Assembly: GCA_026023565.1 (NCBI GenBank)
Contig: JAPETS010000056.1
Coordinates: forward strand, 1-64,000
DNA length: 64,000 nt
Reading direction: 5' to 3'
Source of the DNA: Cirrosporium novae-zelandiae
Lineage: Eukaryota
Positions 4,488 to 60,753 of this stretch are shown in pieces (within the stretch, counting starts at the first letter, position 1; each line of letters starts with the position of its first letter). The notes below the pieces were generated by a model, which saw only the letters and a program-made list of their open reading frames with translations, made no database searches and was not told where the DNA came from. The translations under genes and the position numbers were made by a program.

Positions 4488-7284
4488 TCATGGGGGTTCG
4501 GGCTCCACAGCTATCGCCGTCGCCGTCGCTTGCCTCTCCTTCTCCTCGTGAAACCTTACGATAAAGTCCCTCAGTGCTTCTTTATTATAAGGTTTGGTTA
4601 GAAACCCTTTTGCCCCTTTTTCTCGGGCCTTGTTCATAGCCTCCAATGTCGCGTCCGCACTTACAGCTAACACCGTGACAGATTTTCCCTCCCGCCGCGC
4701 AATCTCCAGTACCTCGGTCGTGGCGTCGTAGCCATCCATTTCTGGCATCCATAGATCCATCAACACGACGTCGATGGTGCGTTGACCAGGGAGGAATGAC
4801 TTTTCCATTTGTGCCACAGCTTCTGTTCCGTTGAAGGCTTCGTACATATGTGCGTAGCCAAGGGACTTAAGCATTTGAGAGAGGATGCGTCGGAGGAGGT
4901 AGTCATCTTCGGCAATGAGGAAGGTGAGAGGGTATTTACTTGCAAGGGTGGTGTCGGTAGGGTTTAAAGCGGAAGTAGGGTTGGTACGGGAAACTGGGGA
5001 CGGTTGCCGAATAGTTAGGGAGGTAGTGGGATGGGGATGGATTGAAGTTGCTGAAGCGATATTTGAGGGAGCAAAAATACTTCTGGTGTTGTATTTTTCA
5101 TCTGAAAATATTGAGATTCTGCTTTGAGGTGAAAATTTCGTGGTGGAGTAGAGTTTTGGTCCGGAAAGAGATGTTTCAGGAGGGCCAGGGGAGTTGGATC
5201 TGGTACTCGACGAGTCTGGCGGCAATATTGGTACGCGAGCCTCAAATACAGAACCGTGGTTGGGACCATGAATTTCGGAATGCAATAACTTTAAGTCTCC
5301 ACCTAGTTTCCTTGCCAACCTTTTCGCAACCATCAAACCTAGACCAAGTCCTTCCTTTGAGCGTGTGATGGATATATCTCCTTGGATAATGGAATTAAAG
5401 AGCTTCGGACGGAGACTATCAGAAATGCCTGCACCGGTATCTTTTATTGTGATGATGATATTTTCCGCCTGGGAGCTTTTCCGAGCCGAAAGAATGATTG
5501 TACCGCCTTCTGTAAACTTGACTGCATTGCGAAATATGCGATCAATGATCCTGGTTAAGGCATCCTCATCGACTACCTCACAGTTAGCCAAGACCAAAAA
5601 GATATAGGGTTTCGATGCCCATACTTGAGAAGGTTATAGGAACCGAAGGATCCACAGACCATTCGATTATTTTGTCAAAAGCTTGTCCATTTTTGCCCTT
5701 CGATCGGACTTTGATACTCTGACCTAAAGGCGTATCCCGAGGATCCACTGAATCAGGACGTCCACCAACCATCAAAGCTTCGTGAACAATTATAGGCAAT
5801 AGATTTCGCAGATTTGTATAATCCGCTCCACGACTTGACGATGGTTCGGTTATATAAGAGGACGACCGCTCTGCAATAACTGGTCGTTCAGTTGGCTTTG
5901 CTGGAGTGGATCTCTCCTCCGACTTCCTTCTCAAAGATACTTTGGGACCGTGGCTGTCTCGGACAATGGATCTTAAAACTTCATGGTGATGGGACCCAGT
6001 GCTTTGGAGTGATGACTGGATTGCACGGTGCTTAAAAGGAGGTCTAATTGATCTCTCTCCAGAGCTGCTTCGGCGTCTTTTATGTGGATTATCGATAGGT
6101 TGCTTGCCCTCGAGCAGAATGTTTTGTCTCTTGTTTCCTAGAGAACTGGGGAAATAGCCTTCTGTAGATTCATCATCTTTCATCCCATCTGGCGTATCAG
6201 GTATTTGCATGCCAAGATCACACGCGTGAACTACATTATCAGCTGCTTCAACCACTCGTCTAGAGCTGTCTAGATACAATTGAATCAGTATTTACAATTC
6301 TCTAATTCTCTTTGAGCCGGCATACGACATACCTTCCATGGCTTCAAGACCTTCTCGAAATGTCTCAGCAACCTCTCGCAGATATGTATCTGGACTATCT
6401 TTGACCTTCTCGTGGAAATGTTGAACCGTAGCTTGCAACACGCTCAACATGCCTACTATGCCTTGCATTGGTGTACGTAGTTCATGATACAAACTGCGTG
6501 CATATGGCTTGATGGTCTGCAAGGTAGTAACGGCTTCCTGGGGAATCACATACGGTGATTTTACTAGTGATGTAGGCCTTGCGAACCCTTGGCCTTGTAC
6601 CAACCGTTCGAGGATGAGATCTTCCAAAGAATGTAACATCATCTCCAGAAATCCCCAGCCAAAAGTTAGTTGCTCCAAACCTTTGGCACCCCACATTATA
6701 CCAAAGTGAGACAAACACTTTCCTTCGGAGAAAAGCGGCACACCAAGATAAGCCTCACCAGCAATGGGAAGCTTATTTGGATTGTCCATGATGAACGAGT
6801 TCAGTTTTTCTGGGATGAGAAAGGTCTTGTCGTGGCGCATATGAGCACATGGACACCCCCAGGCGAGATACTTATAATCCCGGTGCATGTCCTTGATCTC
6901 TCCTCCGTCGTTGTAGTAGAATGCAACGCCCATCAAGCACGATCCCTCCTGGCCAATCGGTGGCATCTCCACTGCTGCATTCTGATTATCCACCAGAATT
7001 CTTTTGGCAACAAAACCATATTGCGCTGATGTAATTGTCGTCATGCCTTCCATAAGTAATTTCCAGAATTCCTCGGCCTCGGCACCCTTCAACTTAGCCT
7101 TCAGTGTGATCAACTGTTCAAGAGCACTGCTTTCATCCGCAGGAAAGTGGCGAGCGAGCTTTTCTCCGAAGCCATCGTCTCCCTTGTGGAGTGTGATACC
7201 TGGCTGGTCACTGGCAAGGCATATAGTGGCCCTATCAACTAACTGGGGCAGCGGCCGAGGCGAGCTAGAACTTCTCCCGACCAT
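4488..7284 (-). CDS. Hybrid sensor histidine kinase (GAF-like, HisKA, HATPase_c, receiver)
   Basis: Exons 7284-6333, 6269-5625, 5572-4488. H-box HELRTPMQG, N-box FRNAVKFT, G1 DTGAGI, G2 GLGLGL, receiver AEDD..MDLWMPEMDG..TKP. Confidence 0.93.
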
Positions 7285-37009: not shown

Positions 37010-39024
37010 ATTGGATAGGTCTACAAGGGATCCTCCACTCTATACGATACGGTATAACTATTGAATTACGGCATGAAATATACAGTCCCTCCTCTGTGTT
37101 GTGTGCTGTTATTGGTTACTACCATGGAGAAGGATGTTGCCCTATTGTATCAACCGTCGGTCTTGTTATTCTAGTGGAATCATTTTTCGGGTTTCGATCG
37201 GGTTCAGGCTCAGGAGCGTTTAGCGTGGGGTTGCGTGGTTTAAAGTTCCCTGTTTTCCTTATTTTATCCAAACCTTTAGTTCGATTCCTGTGATATACCT
37301 TATTATCGTCGACTTTCGTCCACAACAACCTACCGAGAGAAGAATGGCTTCCTGATATGCATATCTGCGATGGGATGGAGTGGATGAAAAAAGAGGCTGT
37401 GTGAGCGCTGAAGTGGGATCAGATGAATGTCAAGGGTCAATCAATCAGCCAGTCATAAATTAAGGGTAAAAATGTGTCCGTCTGTCTCTGGTTCCTCTGT
37501 ATCTATGCAAGCATGTCAAGCAAAGGGCACCAGGATTCATTCCCATGGATCGAGTGTGTGCGTGTATGGGGTTTTTAGTCTGTCAATTCTTCATACCAAA
37601 GCAAACCAAAAACAAAAACAAAAACAAAGTCAAGCAGACAGAAAACAAGCAAGTTAAGCAATACGATCTTATCCTTGTTGTTCTCATCCCTTCATCCTCG
37701 CCGTCTCCTGTTCTTCTCTCTCTCTCTCCTTTCAACAAAGCATGGAGTTTGAGTGGGTGAGTGAGTGTATTCATTCTCGGTTGTTGTTGTTGTTGTTTTA
37801 TTTTATTTTTAGGACTTTTAATAAGTTTCTAGGTTTTAGGTATAGGTTAGGTTAGGTTTTAAAGTCTTATAAGTGCTTTTTTATAGTATGGACGTGTGTA
37901 TGGTTTTTGTTGATCGTTGGTGTTCTTGGTGAAGAAGGGGAAGAAGAAAAAGCGGAATATATATATATTAGGCTTTTGTTAGTAAAAAAGAGAGGATGGG
38001 AAGGAAAGGGGGGGCGGGAGCTTGTAACTTTGATAATTTGATCAAATATCTAAGTATATATGTATGTTTGTATGTATGTATGTGGTATAGGGGGTATTAG
38101 TATTAGTGTTTTTTGGAATATATTATAGGGAAATTGTCTAAATATATTTATGTGTGTGTGCGAGAATGAGATCTAGATATATGGTAGAGAAATATTTTTT
38201 TTTAATGGATGATGGGGAGTTTATAGTTATGGTCATGATTGTGGTTGTGAGTTTCTCTGTTTCTGTTTTTTTTTTTTAGTCCGAGAAATTGGTTCTTTTT
38301 CCTTATTTTTTCGTCCGTACATATGGGGTTTTGGTGGGGGTATGGTATGGCACAGGGATGTATGACAGGTATCTATATCTATATCTATATGTCTTGGAAA
38401 CTATACTATGGGGAATTGAAACGTACGTACGTGAGCGGGTAAAACTCAAACTCAAATGTCCTTTTCTTTTTTTTTGTTTTTTGTCTAGATGGGAGAGGAT
38501 ATCGGAGTTGCTGTATCTAATTACTTTGTTCCTTGCAGTAAGTAGGTTTAGAGTGGGTGTATGCGTATGTATTCATATGTCCACGGATAAAAGAATAGAA
38601 AGTATCCCCCCCCCACGAGTTCTATTGCATTGATGTATTTCAGCCAATGATAGAAAAGAAGTTTCTTGGTAGGAATTAAATAATAGATAAGTGGTTAGTT
38701 TAGAAGGAATTACAAGCAATTACTTTTCCATATTTGGTTTCCCTCTTAAGCCCGATATCCGAATCTCCGAGTTATAGACGACGACCGAGGGAGGGAAATG
38801 AATAGATAAACTGCGTCAGCCCCAGGTCACTTGGTTCCTTTTTTTATTTGATTGTCTTTTGTTTGAAAAAATCTCTGCTCTGGTATTTGGAAATCCCATT
38901 GTTGGCGTGTTTTTATGCAACGTAACTTGAGTGTTTAGTTGTTTGTTTGTGAGATTGACTCTGCTCTGCTCTGAGACTTCTGTGGATACTTTAGGCTGCC
39001 ACAATAGATATCGAGATTGTGACT

Positions 39025-39982
39025 ATGATACGAAACCTTTGCCGTGTTGTCGGCCTCCCTGTAGCCTCCTCGCAGCAATACTTCGTGCCCCCAGTCGACC
39101 CGAAGGAGGATGGCGAGGATTGCGAGAACGACTGCGAAAGCTGTGTCGAGAAGCTTCCGAGCAGATTCCATGTCGACGAGAAGAGGGAGCTGTATGGGAT
39201 GGTCAAGCCGTGGGGTGTGCATGTATTGGTTGCTACTGGAAAGAGCGATTGGGTTAGAAAAGTTGAGCGGGAGAGTGGTACGCTCACGGAGGCTTTAGCT
39301 AGGGAGGACCATGGTGGGAAGGAGGTGAGTTTTGATGGGAAGAAATGGGCAAGAAAGATGTGCCTAACTAATGTGACATGCATAGCGTCTCATGATCTTG
39401 GCTTCGAATATTGAACCCCCAGAGGAATATTATACCGATTCGAAAAAACCCACAACCGTGCTCTTGCTTCCGGCTTTCATATTCGTCAATCATGTCACCA
39501 ATTCTGATGTCCCAGAGCTGATGCGCCGATTCATTGATACCAGCCCCTCGGTCACTACGCCGCTATCCTCGAAACCAGCGTTATATCCGTCGGGAGACCT
39601 CTCCTACCGTGATTGTCCTCACGACTACGTCGTCCTTCTCTGTTCCCACAAGCATCGCGATGCCAGATGTGGTATCTCTGCCCCTCTTATCAAACGCGAA
39701 CTGGAGCGACATCTCCGTCCACGGGGCCTCTACCGTGATTCCAATGATGAGCGCCCAGGCGGCGTAGGAATTTATTACGTGAGCCATGTTGGGGGCCACA
39801 AATTTGCGGCAAATGTGTTAGTGTATAGAAAGAAAGAGGGACAGATGATATGGTTAGCGAGAATTAGACCAGAGCATTGCGAGGGGTTGGTGAAATGGAC
39901 CATACTGGAGGGGAAGGTGGTGGATCCAGATCGGAGATTGAGGGGCGGATGGGATCGGGGAAAGGGGGTGGGAAGTTGGTAG
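39025..39982 (+). CDS. APD1: Sucrase/ferredoxin-like (thioredoxin-like ferredoxin) 2Fe-2S protein, Apd1/Aim32 family
   Basis: Exons 39025-39324 and 39386-39982. CSHKHRDARCG (C-X8-C), SHVGGHKFAAN (HxGGH), N-terminal CENDCESC, VATGKSDW. Confidence 0.88.
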
Positions 39983-56601: not shown

Positions 56602-57095
56602 ATTCCGCATACATGGATACTTGGTAGAAAAGTTTATGGTTGATAGTGTAAAATTCTCAATATTGCGTTAGAGGTGAAGCTGAGTTTCATATCGCATTGG
56701 TTCACTGATACCTTCCTGCACTAGCTTGCCATAACTATCAATACTTGTGTTATTTACTTGCCTTGTGAATATTGGAAATCAAATTGGAAACTTGGCTTGC
56801 ATTGGGCAGGTTCCATTGGATACATAGGTAAGAAAGGGGACGGTGTGGACGAAAAAAAAATTGCATCAATATACTTGCATTGGATTTGGAGTAGGATATT
56901 TCCTTGCAATGGCACAGTATTTTTGGGGGGTTAAACGTTGGAAATGTAAATTAGGCTTGGTCGGTGCAATAGCTATGGGAATCAAACATGCAGAGTTTGA
57001 ACACATTCGCTAAAGGCTTGAGATATCATCTTATGTTCGACAATGGTAATTTGATACTGTACAAAGGAGCATGAAGTTCCAAGTTGGTTGGCCTA

Positions 57096-57693
57096 TTATT
57101 TTGGCCATTTCTTCCACCGACGCCCATGACCAGACTGGATTGTTCAAATTAGTCTTCCCCTCAGCCTTAAAAGTAGTAGGACAATAACATACTTCTCTCC
57201 ATTTCTGGATCAATTCCGGCATCTCCATCATAGCCTTTTTCCTCACCTCCAGCCTTGGTCTCATGGTCCTCTCCCACTTATGACCCTTGACTTTCTGTCC
57301 TTCACCCGTACCCTTGACCCTTAATCCGTACTCGGCTAGCCGTTGTTCCTTATAAGCCGTTGATTTCTTAGAGAATGGCATCAACGATTCGACGCCATAT
57401 TCCTCGGCTATCTTGCATAGTTGCCGTTGATGCCGGAGACCTATCCTTGGATCTAGCCAAAAACCGGTGATAGGATGTTTTGAGGGGAGAAAAGGGTTTG
57501 GTACGGAAGCAGCAGGTGTAGTGCTAATAGCTTTTGCAGCTGGGGCATCTGGATTGGAGGGAGGTGTTGCGGGGGGCGGAGCGGGCTTTGCGGAGGTAGG
57601 GAGGATGGATGGGGGTGGATATTTTGCGAAGAAGCGTTGAAGACGAGGAGGAAGAGTGCGAGCCAATTGGATGCACTCTGCTCGGGTAGCCAT
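57096..57693 (-). CDS. MRPL25: Mitochondrial large ribosomal subunit protein mL59
   Basis: Exon 1 from 57693 to about 57193, short intron, last exon SGHGRRWKKWPK*. LPPRLQRFFAKYPP, NPFLP, VKGHKWER. Confidence 0.88.
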
Positions 57694-58036
57694 ATTGGAT
57701 AGAGAGAGAGGAGAGAGGAGATATAATTCCAAAGATGCAAAGGCAATTAATCAAAGGGCAATCAAGCAATCAAGGCTGATTGATTACTTGTGCCTCGGTA
57801 GGGCTGAGGAAGAAAAAAAGTGGAACTAATATCACTGGCTTGGCTTCTTTAACATTAGTCGATCATTGCCCTTCACTCCGGCTCTCTCTCCCTCTCTCTC
57901 ATTCTCGACCGTATCTTTACACACATTTATTCTCACCACATCTTCTCACCCCCCCAACCATAATTTTCATTCCCAAATCCACCCACTATATCATATCCCG
58001 AATTTCTAATCAATTTCCAAAATACCTCGAGGTATT

Positions 58037-60753
58037 ATGGCGGACTTTAACTTCGTCGGAGGGAGTGATGAGGATGGTATGGCTGAGCTCAAGAAGCTCA
58101 ATGTTGAAGTGGTAAGTGATACAATACATGATCATGTCCACCTTTATGCGCCATCAGTCATGCATACACCCAGCAGTAAGACTATGGGAGCTACATAGTG
58201 GCGTTCTTGAGAGGACTCGACCGTAATGAAGCTGCTATTTGATTCTTGGAATTTCTGATTTTCATGGGATTGTCGCGATTGTCGCAATCCCCATGGCCGA
58301 AAAGGCTGAGCATGACGGTTATGCCTATTGGCTCAGACAATAGCTCTTATTCAATCAAAATATCTTGCTTAAACATTTCGTCTATGACCATTCCGCTAAC
58401 ATAAATAATAGCTTGAGGATACCGATAACTTTGACAACTGGGAAAAGCTTGTGCGGGCTGCCGAATCCCTTGAAGGTGGTTTAAATCGAAACTCCAGCCC
58501 ACAATCCATCACCGTTACGAGGCAAATCTACGACCGCTTTTTGGCAAAGTTCCCTTTGCTGTTCGGGTATTGGAAAAAATATGCAGACTTGGAATTCTCT
58601 ATTGCTGGGACTGAGGCTGCTGAAATGGTGCGTTAAAACCGATCTTATACTTGAGTCCACTTTGTATAAAGCTTTCTCCAACTACGACGAGCCGATGATA
58701 GTTTCCAACGTGGGTTTGGACTTGATAGCAGAGGGAAGGGCTATCAGGAACTTGGGAGGCTCGCTGAACCAGCTGAAGTTTGGCTATCATAAGAATGATT
58801 ACTAATACGATTATAGGTTTATGAACGAGGTGTGGCCAGCATCACCAACTCTGTCGACTTATGGACAAATTATTGCTCCTTCAAAGTCGAAACAAGTCAC
58901 GACCCAGACGTGATCAGAGAGTAAGTATTGAAATACTGTTTCCTTCCCCATAACAGTATTCCTCCAGCAGGAGCACATCGGCACAGTCCCAAAGAACGAG
59001 AGTAGTCCTTATAGATCAAGGTCGTTCACGGGTGAGAGTGGCACCAGAAAAAATTTCTCCCCTTCAGAATTTTGTCTCACCTCTAGCACTCAGGCACTTT
59101 CTTTTCCTTCATTCAATCACACAACACATGATACCGTTTCGAGATGATATTGTCTCTTCTACGCGAAACACCCCGACCGTAGTTGGATTTGCCGACGATT
59201 TTTGAAGATTCGATCACACCTGTCTGTCATGTTTGCTGTCCTCTCCACCCTTCCTGATCTCTAGCTTCCCCTTTCCTTTATATATATCTGTTATACTTAC
59301 TTGTCGAATTACCAGGTTATACGAAAGAGGCGCCGTTTCTGTTGGTCTTGACTTTCTGGCCCATCCTTTCTGGGATAAGTATCTTGAATTCGAGGAAAGA
59401 TTAGAGGCGTACGACAAGATTTTTGCTATACTAGATCGTATCGTTCATATACCAATGCATCAGTATGCCCGATATTTTGAGCGATTTCGACAACTGGCAC
59501 AATCCCGCCCCCTTGAAGAATTGATGCCTGCCGACATGCTAGGTCAATGGCGTTCGGAAATTCAGATGGAACCTGTAGCCCCTGCTCAACCCGGAATGCC
59601 CCCAATGAAGGCCGAGAAGAGCGAACCTGAAATTGAGCGGGAATTGAGGACTCGTATTGATAATTTCCACCTTGAGATCTTCTCTAGGACACAAACCGAG
59701 ACTACAAAGCGCTGGACTTATGAGTCGGAAATCAAGCGACCTTATTTCCACATTACAGAATTGGATGAAGCGCAAATGGTCAATTGGAGAAAGTACCTCG
59801 ATTTCGAGGAGATTGAAGGTGACTATACTAGGACTGCCTTTCTCTACGAAAGATGCCTAGTTACGTGCGCCCTGTATGATGAATTCTGGTTACGATATGC
59901 TCGATGGATGCTCGCACAAATAGGAAAAGAGGAAGAAGTTCGGAACATATATCAACGGGCTAGTACTGTATATGTCCCTATCTCTCGGCCGGCTGTTCGA
60001 CTACAATATGCATATTTCGAGGAAATGTCAGGAAGGGTTGATATCGCAAAAGAAATCCACAATGCTATTCTTGTTAACCTACCAGGACATATTGAGACAA
60101 TTGTATCTTTAGCAAATCTCTCCCGAAGGGATGGTGGTCTTGATGCAGCTATCGAGGTGTACAAAGCACAAATTGATTCTCCGTTATGCGACCTCTACGC
60201 CAAAGCTGCTTTGGTTGCAGAGTGGGCAAGATTGCTGTGGAAGGTCAAGGGTTCGGCTGAAGAAGCTCGCCAGGTATTCCAGAAACAGCAACACTGGTAT
60301 CTAGATAGCCGCCAGTTCTGGATCAACTATCTCACGTTCGAGCTTGAGCAGCCCACCAGTGCTGAACTTGAAGCCACCAACCATGCTAGAATTAAGCAAA
60401 TTGTCAATGACATCCGACAAAAGAGCCGACTTTCCCCCTTGATCATCAAAGATTTATGCCATTACTATATGGTTTATTTGCTCGAGCGTGGCCCTAAAGA
60501 TGCCGCCAAGGAATACATGGACTTGGATCGGGAAGTCAACGGGCCTTTCTCTGTGCAGAGTACTATGAAGACTAAGGTGGCCGAGGACGGAAAAGAGAGT
60601 AGCACAAACCGACGGTTGGTGTTAGAAAATGGCCACCCAGGTGTTGAGGTGGATGAAGCGGCGATTCGAAGGGGAGAAAATCCTTACACGAAATATTACC
60701 AACAACAAGGCGACCATCCTTTGGCAGCTAACGGGGTGAGTGCTTCTACATGA
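58037..60753 (+). CDS. PRP39: U1 snRNP HAT-repeat protein Prp39
   Basis: Exons 58037-58111, 58412-58627, 58817-58920, 59316-60753. FPLLFGYWKKYA, VGLDFLAHPFWDKY, IKRPYFH, LYERCLVTCALYDEFW. Confidence 0.94.
58688..58763 (+). ncRNA. Candidate structured intronic RNA element (multi-stem junction) in PRP39 intron 2
   Basis: Closing stem CGAGCC/GGCTCG, inner AGTT/AACT, hairpins TCCAA/TTGGA and TGATAGC/GCTATCA. Pairings were read by eye only. Confidence 0.4.

Follow-up and report, generated by a model that had tools for sequence, protein, structure and literature searches.

A long, conserved third intron of PRP39 in filamentous ascomycetes as a candidate unproductive-splicing module

Intron 3 of PRP39, the gene for a protein of the U1 small nuclear ribonucleoprotein (U1 snRNP), is described here in a 64 000-nucleotide stretch of Cirrosporium novae-zelandiae DNA (positions 1 to 64,000 of contig JAPETS010000056.1, assembly GCA_026023565.1; hereafter the window). 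The intron is conserved among orthologues in its position, its length and its internal motifs; RNA from one orthologue contains its canonical splice together with one alternative joint, and the internal segment next to this joint brings premature stops into the reading frame. On these observations we consider it somewhat probable that intron 3 is a conserved regulatory intron of PRP39 in filamentous ascomycetes, an unproductive-splicing module with negative feedback. The decay of the isoform that would contain the internal segment is a predicted step, and so is the feedback of Prp39 and U1 on intron 3, which is proposed by analogy. In animals and plants, splicing factors that limit themselves through unproductive splicing have been studied extensively; few such cases are, to our knowledge, documented in filamentous fungi, in which intron retention is usually treated as noise.

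The PRP39 gene occupies positions 58037-60753 of the + strand, and splicing out its three introns (Table 1) leaves an open frame of 1833 nt for a product of 610 amino acids. This product is 100% identical to the public protein of a C. novae-zelandiae metagenome-assembled genome (P0001). Its alignment with 15 orthologues is colinear and without gaps at all three junctions, the Pfam family HAT_PRP39_N runs through consecutive profile positions across exons 2, 3 and 4, and HAT_PRP39_C lies in exon 4. All three introns have GT..AG ends and a branch-like motif. Because the spliced protein equals P0001, the orthologues are gapless at the junctions and the Pfam repeats run across the exons, the intron coordinates and the lengths of 300, 189 and 395 nt given in a preliminary description of this DNA are exact; its assumption that the fungus belongs to the Eurotiomycetes was mistaken, as the taxonomy of C. 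novae-zelandiae gives Xylobotryomycetes.

The age of the three introns was assessed in orthologous loci. Metagenome contigs were scanned with a PRP39 alignment; 521 stretches matched, 276 of them encode relatives and the best 80 loci were kept. The four exons were placed in these loci by ungapped tblastn and the introns were read off between them. Judged by their best named protein, the loci come from relatives of Pleopsidium (Lecanoromycetes), of Rasamsonia/Paecilomyces (Eurotiales), of an Onygenales-like group, of Trichophaea (98.8%) and of Tuber (about 85%), and they cover much of the Pezizomycotina, from lichen fungi to relatives of Tuber and Pyronema. Of the 73 loci in which the presence of intron 3 could be assessed, 71 carry it; its phase is the same in all of them (codon 132 is split after its second base), its ends are GT..AG and it measures 317-538 nt. 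Two loci, L001 and L002, are cDNA-like contigs without it; in L054, which was inspected by eye, it is present with all of its conserved blocks. In the same loci intron 1 measures 48-96 nt and intron 2 0-116 nt, the 300 and 189 nt of the window being the longest, and neither window intron shares sequence with any other part of the window or with the 80 loci. Columns that are at least 80% identical number 5 of 60 in intron 1 and 8 of 50 in intron 2, and every one of them belongs to a splice signal. In a MAFFT alignment of 59 unique intron-3 sequences (58 from the loci plus the window), 51 of 377 consensus columns reach an identity of at least 80%, 39 of them away from the outer splice signals; this is a conservation beyond that of a neutral intron, which introns 1 and 2 nowhere display outside their splice signals.

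Judged from these alignments, intron 3 is ancient and is long wherever it is found among these relatives. Introns 1 and 2 are best described as ordinary introns that have grown in this lineage, with no conserved or structured content detected; their length is ascribed to lineage-specific growth because the orthologous introns are short and no sequence is shared. An origin as transposon remnants was considered for both and rejected, as the window is without repeats and the 80 loci are without matches. The conservation across orthologues that was asked of all three introns at the outset is therefore found for intron 3 (71 loci and 39 internal columns) and is absent from introns 1 and 2. Two loci lie further afield. 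L063 (positions 1377-1800) and L065 encode a distant PRP39 (46-49% identity), probably from outside the Pezizomycotina, and carry at the same codon and in the same phase an intron of 172 nt without the GGTGAG and TCTCAC blocks described below; since the codon and the phase are shared and the blocks are not, the position of intron 3 seems to be older than its motifs. The cDNA-like contig L001 (positions 405-485) has neither intron 1 nor intron 3; its intron 2 is still in place, 48 nt long with GT..AG ends and a branch motif. The contig represents either a transcript that retains intron 2 or a genome that has lost introns 1 and 3.

The outer signals of intron 3 comprise a near-perfect donor, GTAAGTA, a normal branch site and a normal acceptor. 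From 5' to 3', its conserved blocks are GTAAGTA; a pyrimidine tract ending in TAAC and followed by AG; GGTGAGA; TTCTCAC; TCAGG; AGCAC; a late donor block; and the branch site with the acceptor. The late block reads CATGTTTGC or CGTATTTGC and is followed by a pyrimidine tract; the weak donor within it can be written CAT/GTTTGC or, alternatively, C/GTATTTGC (here and below, a slash inside a motif marks the splice boundary). These blocks recur far above expectation. Of the 59 unique intron-3 sequences, 58 contain GGTGAG (2.5 expected from shuffles), and the succession of GGTGAG, TCT[CT]A[CT] 32-55 nt further on and then AG occurs in 57 of 59, against 0.3 in dinucleotide shuffles. This internal unit spans 49-72 nt from GT to AG, a size usual for fungal introns. 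In 54 of the 59 sequences (1.7 expected) the late weak donor block is found 60-110 nt before the end of the intron, and a loose pattern for the tract ending in TAAC is matched by 44 of 59 (1.2 expected). This tract may constitute the branch site and acceptor of a mini-intron, or it may be a U-rich binding site beside the donor. In its motif content, the long intron 3 looks like a series of short intron-like units with non-coding pseudo-exons between them, all of its internal signals being kept weak.

Such a geometry could also be maintained without any feedback. The internal signals might act constitutively, for example as U1/U2 landing pads for the intron-definition removal of an unusually long intron, or in intron-mediated enhancement; the conserved arrangement of the internal mini-intron agrees with this, as does the greater depth of the fully spliced canonical contig in the RNA run discussed below (47.7 versus 9.5). 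A constitutive role, however, leaves unexplained why intron 3 has stayed long while the neighbouring introns measure 45-100 nt. The weak form of the internal sites is itself conserved. Removal of the mini-intron, moreover, regenerates no splice site, and recursive removal would leave internal exons in the mRNA. We regard the constitutive explanation as quite unlikely. For the same reason, namely that no splice signal is regenerated once the internal unit has been removed, intron 3 was rejected as a stwintron or a case of recursive splicing. Complex introns and stwintrons of the Pezizomycotina (e.g. PMC6616335, in the parts consulted) do resemble it in that an intron-like unit is nested in a larger ascomycete intron; they differ in that the internal unit of intron 3 interrupts no outer donor, branch site or acceptor, and its removal creates no splice signal.

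Between the acceptor-like AG and the late donor, intron 3 contains a putative internal exon. The consequences of its inclusion were evaluated in 56 sequences, with its edges set at the acceptor-like AG, which is conserved, and at the late donor. The exon measures 89-186 nt; 48 of the 56 sequences contain an in-frame stop and the other eight shift the frame into a stop within 48-90 codons, so that a premature stop arises in 56 of 56. By its sequence, the internal exon has no conserved coding content, and its inclusion would end Prp39 after about 132 residues. In the window, its 5' edge (59094) is the predicted one, and its 3' edge (59230) is taken from a joint seen in orthologue RNA, being homologous to position 6887 of that orthologue.

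The RNA evidence comes from a Eurotiales-like orthologue, locus L024, the protein of which is 67% identical to that encoded in the window; its intron 3 covers positions 6529-6967 (439 nt). The L024 stretch, or part of it, is contained in 15 runs from seven studies, and Logan contigs of four runs (X1, X2, X6 and X7, from three studies) were mapped on it; such contigs neither quantify isoforms nor show transcript starts. In run X7, a metatranscriptome, a contig of depth 47.7 joins 6068 to 6144, 6359 to 6424 and 6528 to 6968, which is the canonical removal of all three introns. A second contig from the same run (57 nt, depth 9.5) joins 6887 to 6968 with GT..AG ends; the GT at position 6888 is that of the conserved CAT/GTTTGC block, i.e. 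the joint starts exactly there. Along intron 3 of L024, contigs of X7 are absent from 6529-6736 and cover about 6737-6890; the gap is not used as evidence, as a missing stretch of this kind is no proof and 6734-6778 is masked. Where the putative internal exon would start, L024 has a low-complexity insert, an A-run with a CCA repeat, at 6727-6778, and the 5' edge of the exon is not visible in L024 because this insert is masked.

The only internal joint in X7 connects the late donor with exon 4; none leads from exon 3 into the internal segment. This pattern would also be expected if intron 3 held an internal promoter with an alternative first exon, or a DNA-level enhancer, its CT-rich blocks being promoter or transcription-factor sites; a transcript beginning within the intron would be spliced from CAT/GTTTGC to exon 4 and would give an N-terminally truncated protein or a regulatory RNA. 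The conservation of short linear motifs rather than of structure, and the pyrimidine-rich tracts beside the blocks, would suit such an arrangement. The sequence, order and spacing of the blocks, however, are those of donor, branch and acceptor signals, the distances from branch to AG are splice-like, and the contigs on which the argument draws cannot reveal where transcripts start. We judge an internal promoter or enhancer unlikely.

For the unproductive-splicing module that we favour, the following mechanism is proposed. Use of the strong outer sites of intron 3 would yield productive PRP39 mRNA, and use of the weak inner sites would keep the stop-bearing internal exon (about 59094-59230 in the window) in the transcript, which would be unproductive and would probably be removed by nonsense-mediated decay (NMD). 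Prp39 is the U1 snRNP protein that aids U1 at weak donors; high Prp39/U1 activity would then increase the use of the weak sites and reduce PRP39 output. A negative feedback is expected because Prp39 helps U1 to use weak donors. The link to the Prp39 dose is drawn from work on human PRPF39 (PMC9808567; PMC13408128; PMC6582350), here and below as far as the consulted parts of these papers go. PRPF39 promotes the use of weak 5' splice sites (PMC9808567), and its own gene has a conserved alternative exon with a stop codon, which NMD targets weakly (PMC6582350). PRPF39 is required for the inclusion of this exon in its own mRNA, the exon being excluded in the knockout; its overexpression lowers the endogenous mRNA, and PRPF39 takes part in self- and cross-regulation with TRNAU1AP (PMC13408128). 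Fungi of the group considered here possess a PRPF39-type protein and no Prp42 (De Bortoli et al., 2019, PMC6582350).

Several points weigh against this interpretation. The 6887-6968 joint comes from one run of one study, and the shorter side of its contig is 27 nt long, sides below 30 nt being potentially spurious in metagenomes. Runs X1, X2 and X6 (two studies) gave only contigs that are unspliced through the introns, perhaps from DNA or pre-mRNA. No joint into the TCAG/G acceptor or out of GGTGAGA was found in the contigs of the four runs, and the RNA is that of an orthologue rather than of the window's species. Two of the 59 intron-3 sequences, L038 and L076, are without the internal mini-intron pattern. 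A premature stop is expected of any non-coding insert, so the stops only exclude a coding role. Decay and the dependence on Prp39 dose are predictions of the mechanism. The proposal of the preliminary description, that the introns carry cis elements for a self-limiting splicing of PRP39, fits intron 3 alone, and there in the form of weak linear splice motifs and the orthologue joint instead of stems; it is given up for introns 1 and 2.

Table 1. Exons and introns of PRP39 and elements within intron 3 (positions in the window)
Feature	Positions	Strand	Remarks
Exon 1	58037..58111	+	Codons 1-25; spliced translation equals P0001
Intron 1	58112..58411	+	300 nt, phase 0; GTAAGT..branch CTAAC..TAG; long in this lineage only
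Exon 2	58412..58627	+	Codons 26-97; Pfam HAT_PRP39_N profile positions 9-68
Intron 2	58628..58816	+	189 nt, phase 0; GTGCGT..CTAAT..TAG; long in this lineage only
Exon 3	58817..58920	+	Codons 98-131 and two bases of codon 132; HAT_PRP39_N profile positions 70-98
Intron 3	58921..59315	+	395 nt, phase 2 in codon 132; position, length and internal motifs conserved
Pyrimidine tract ending in TAAC	58939..58954	+	18 nt past the 5' splice site; AG dinucleotides in 58955-58970; conserved
Pseudo-5' splice site GG/GTGAGA	59030..59037	+	GT at 59032-59033
Non-consensus branch-like block, TCTCAC core	59073..59081	+	Reverse complement of GTGAGA
Acceptor-like TCAG/GC	59087..59095	+	AG at 59092-59093; 11-13 nt past the branch-like block; conserved
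Putative internal poison exon	59094..59230	+	137 nt, not a multiple of 3; in-frame TGA at 59203-59205
Weak alternative 5' splice site CAT/GTTTGC	59228..59236	+	GT at 59231-59232; pyrimidine tract 59237-59254 next
Exon 4	59316..60753	+	Codons 132 (third base) to 610 and stop; Pfam HAT_PRP39_C, E 4.6e-63; 100% identical to P0001

The two central blocks of the internal unit, GTGAGA and TCTCAC, are exact complements of each other, and a pairing between them is possible on sequence grounds. At its variable position, the branch-like block has C in the majority of sequences and U in a small number; A or G, the usual bases there, were seen in none, and C or U at this position can always pair or wobble with the opposite G. 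Beyond the 6-bp core, the helix is extended by a mean of 1.5 pairs on the inner side (including a conserved A-T pair) and of 0.78 on the outer side, which is about chance; the Eurotiales-like group is an exception, with a helix of 10-11 bp. A candidate compensatory change at the next position was rejected, as L014 and L015 break it. In L076 (positions 6428-6945), the single orthologue to have lost GGTGAG, TCTCAC is lost as well, from an intron 3 that, at 518 nt, is among the longest copies; the joint loss fits two blocks that work as a pair.

A more specific version of the module, which we consider doubtful, would have the RNA of intron 3 sense U1 snRNP activity directly, as a switch with two inputs that the Pezizomycotina have retained from their common ancestor onwards. 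In this version GGTGAGA would pair with the non-consensus branch site TTCTCAC in the intron upstream of the poison exon and would thereby hide it. Abundant U1, together with Prp39, would bind the pseudo-5' site and unmask the branch site, and would also activate CAT/GTTTGC; the poison exon would then be included and PRP39 output would fall. Parallels to such an arrangement are provided by the SF3B3 poison exon, which has a concealed branch-site stem (PMC11162794), and by ENOX1, in which a pseudo-5' splice site that is ultraconserved acts through U1 (PMC13100119), both sources being considered in part. The fungal TCTCAC likewise complements an invariant GTGAGA and lies upstream of the putative poison exon, and this GTGAGA is itself an invariant pseudo-5' site. 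The fungal pairing is without compensatory changes and its extension beyond the 6-bp core is about that of chance.

Structure in the wider sense was examined by comparing the minimum free energy of each PRP39 intron with that of dinucleotide shuffles. Intron 1 gave -69.1 against -69.9 +/- 5.3 (z +0.14), intron 2 gave -41.8 against -43.1 +/- 4.0 (z +0.32) and intron 3 gave -76.6 against -76.2 +/- 4.9 (z -0.07). RNAalifold, applied to 32 of the 59 unique intron-3 sequences, returned a consensus of 4 bp with -0.9 kcal/mol and no compensatory pairs, the sole helix being GAGA with TCTC inside the complementary blocks described above. A search of Rfam 15 gave no match within the PRP39 introns up to E 10, and no match anywhere in the window reached the gathering score. 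A C box accompanied by a D box and a terminal stem was found on neither strand of the introns, H/ACA elements not being scanned for separately, and no notable repeats were found in the window.

These results bear on a different understanding of the gene, in which each of the three introns would be a structured RNA rich in stems or would host non-coding RNAs such as small nucleolar RNAs. Stems can indeed be drawn in each intron, and one consensus helix, the 4-bp one, is recovered in intron 3. The fold energies are nevertheless the same as those of shuffled sequences, the Rfam and box C/D searches of the introns are empty, the RNAalifold consensus is negligible in energy and without compensatory pairs, and conservation is wholly absent from introns 1 and 2. 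This reading is already largely refuted and we consider it very improbable. The several Watson-Crick stems that had been noted in each intron are accordingly not above chance, the covariation sought among intron-3 orthologues amounts to zero compensatory pairs, and the suggestion of intronic non-coding RNAs finds no Rfam match, no box C/D pair and no conserved structure or covariation in its favour. Intron 1 does contain a small imperfect palindrome with a duplicated 6-mer (58263-58298) that dominates its centroid fold; no counterpart was found elsewhere in the window or in the 80 loci.

The closest known system is the mammalian PRPF39 poison exon, again as described in the consulted parts of the papers cited above. 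It belongs to the same gene family, it is a conserved alternative exon with a premature stop within an intron of the gene, and it fits the logic of a weak-donor helper that promotes an exon shutting off its own gene. The two systems differ in several respects. In the human gene the exon is placed between exons 8 and 9 (PMC13408128), whereas the fungal module occupies an intron close to the N-terminus, at codon 132 of 610; the weak signals of the fungal module form two nested sets, and a pseudo-5' site is present as well; and decay and feedback are at the level of prediction in the fungal case. The differing location suggests that the fungal module originated independently of the human exon, the positions being compared by exon number versus codon rather than mapped on an alignment. 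In regulated unproductive splicing across kingdoms (Lareau & Brenner, 2015, PMC4379411), splicing factors limit themselves through the conserved splicing of NMD substrates, fungi included; the part of that paper considered here treats SR proteins and does not mention PRP39. For Neurospora, prp39 (NCU10810) is just listed among up-regulated spliceosome genes in the consulted part of another report (PMC4549623). A full-text literature search, the coverage of which excludes subscription journals and supplements, yielded no publication that deals with a long intron or a poison exon of fungal PRP39.

Intron 3 presents itself as a cis module with sharp limits, some 350 nt in length, that contains three or four invariant short motifs and is located in the gene for a U1 weak-donor helper and conserved across truffle relatives, lichen fungi and moulds. 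It appears to be an independent parallel to the poison-exon feedback of human PRPF39 published in 2026. With such a module, the homeostasis of the fungal U1 snRNP becomes directly testable through mutations of a few bases in Aspergillus or Neurospora. Gene predictors should accept the long intron 3 of PRP39 as real.

The other introns of the window were surveyed by a heuristic scan for GT..AG joins that link two open frames of at least 90 codons each. A looser version of the scan gave 305 candidates and a stricter one 12; the flank-based version, which was used, gave 15. Ten of these measure 44-134 nt, including the 134-nt intron previously named as the longest outside PRP39, and, within the limits of such a heuristic, the earlier statement that introns elsewhere in the window are short is roughly borne out. 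Four long candidates (221, 538, 713 and 771 nt) are probably false joins because their donors are poor. A further candidate of 430 nt (38565-38994, + strand, GTATGT..TAG, between two open frames) was rejected as probably intergenic or 5' untranslated sequence, because the Suc_Fer-like domain (Pfam) begins only in the frame downstream of it. A 61-nt intron at 39325-39385 is independently supported by the continuity of the Pfam profile. Next to PRP39, the gene for the mitochondrial ribosomal protein mL59 (57034-57696, - strand; Pfam E 4e-43) is arranged head to head with it, and the two start codons are separated by about 340 bp of CT-rich DNA (57700-58036) in which a divergent promoter presumably lies.

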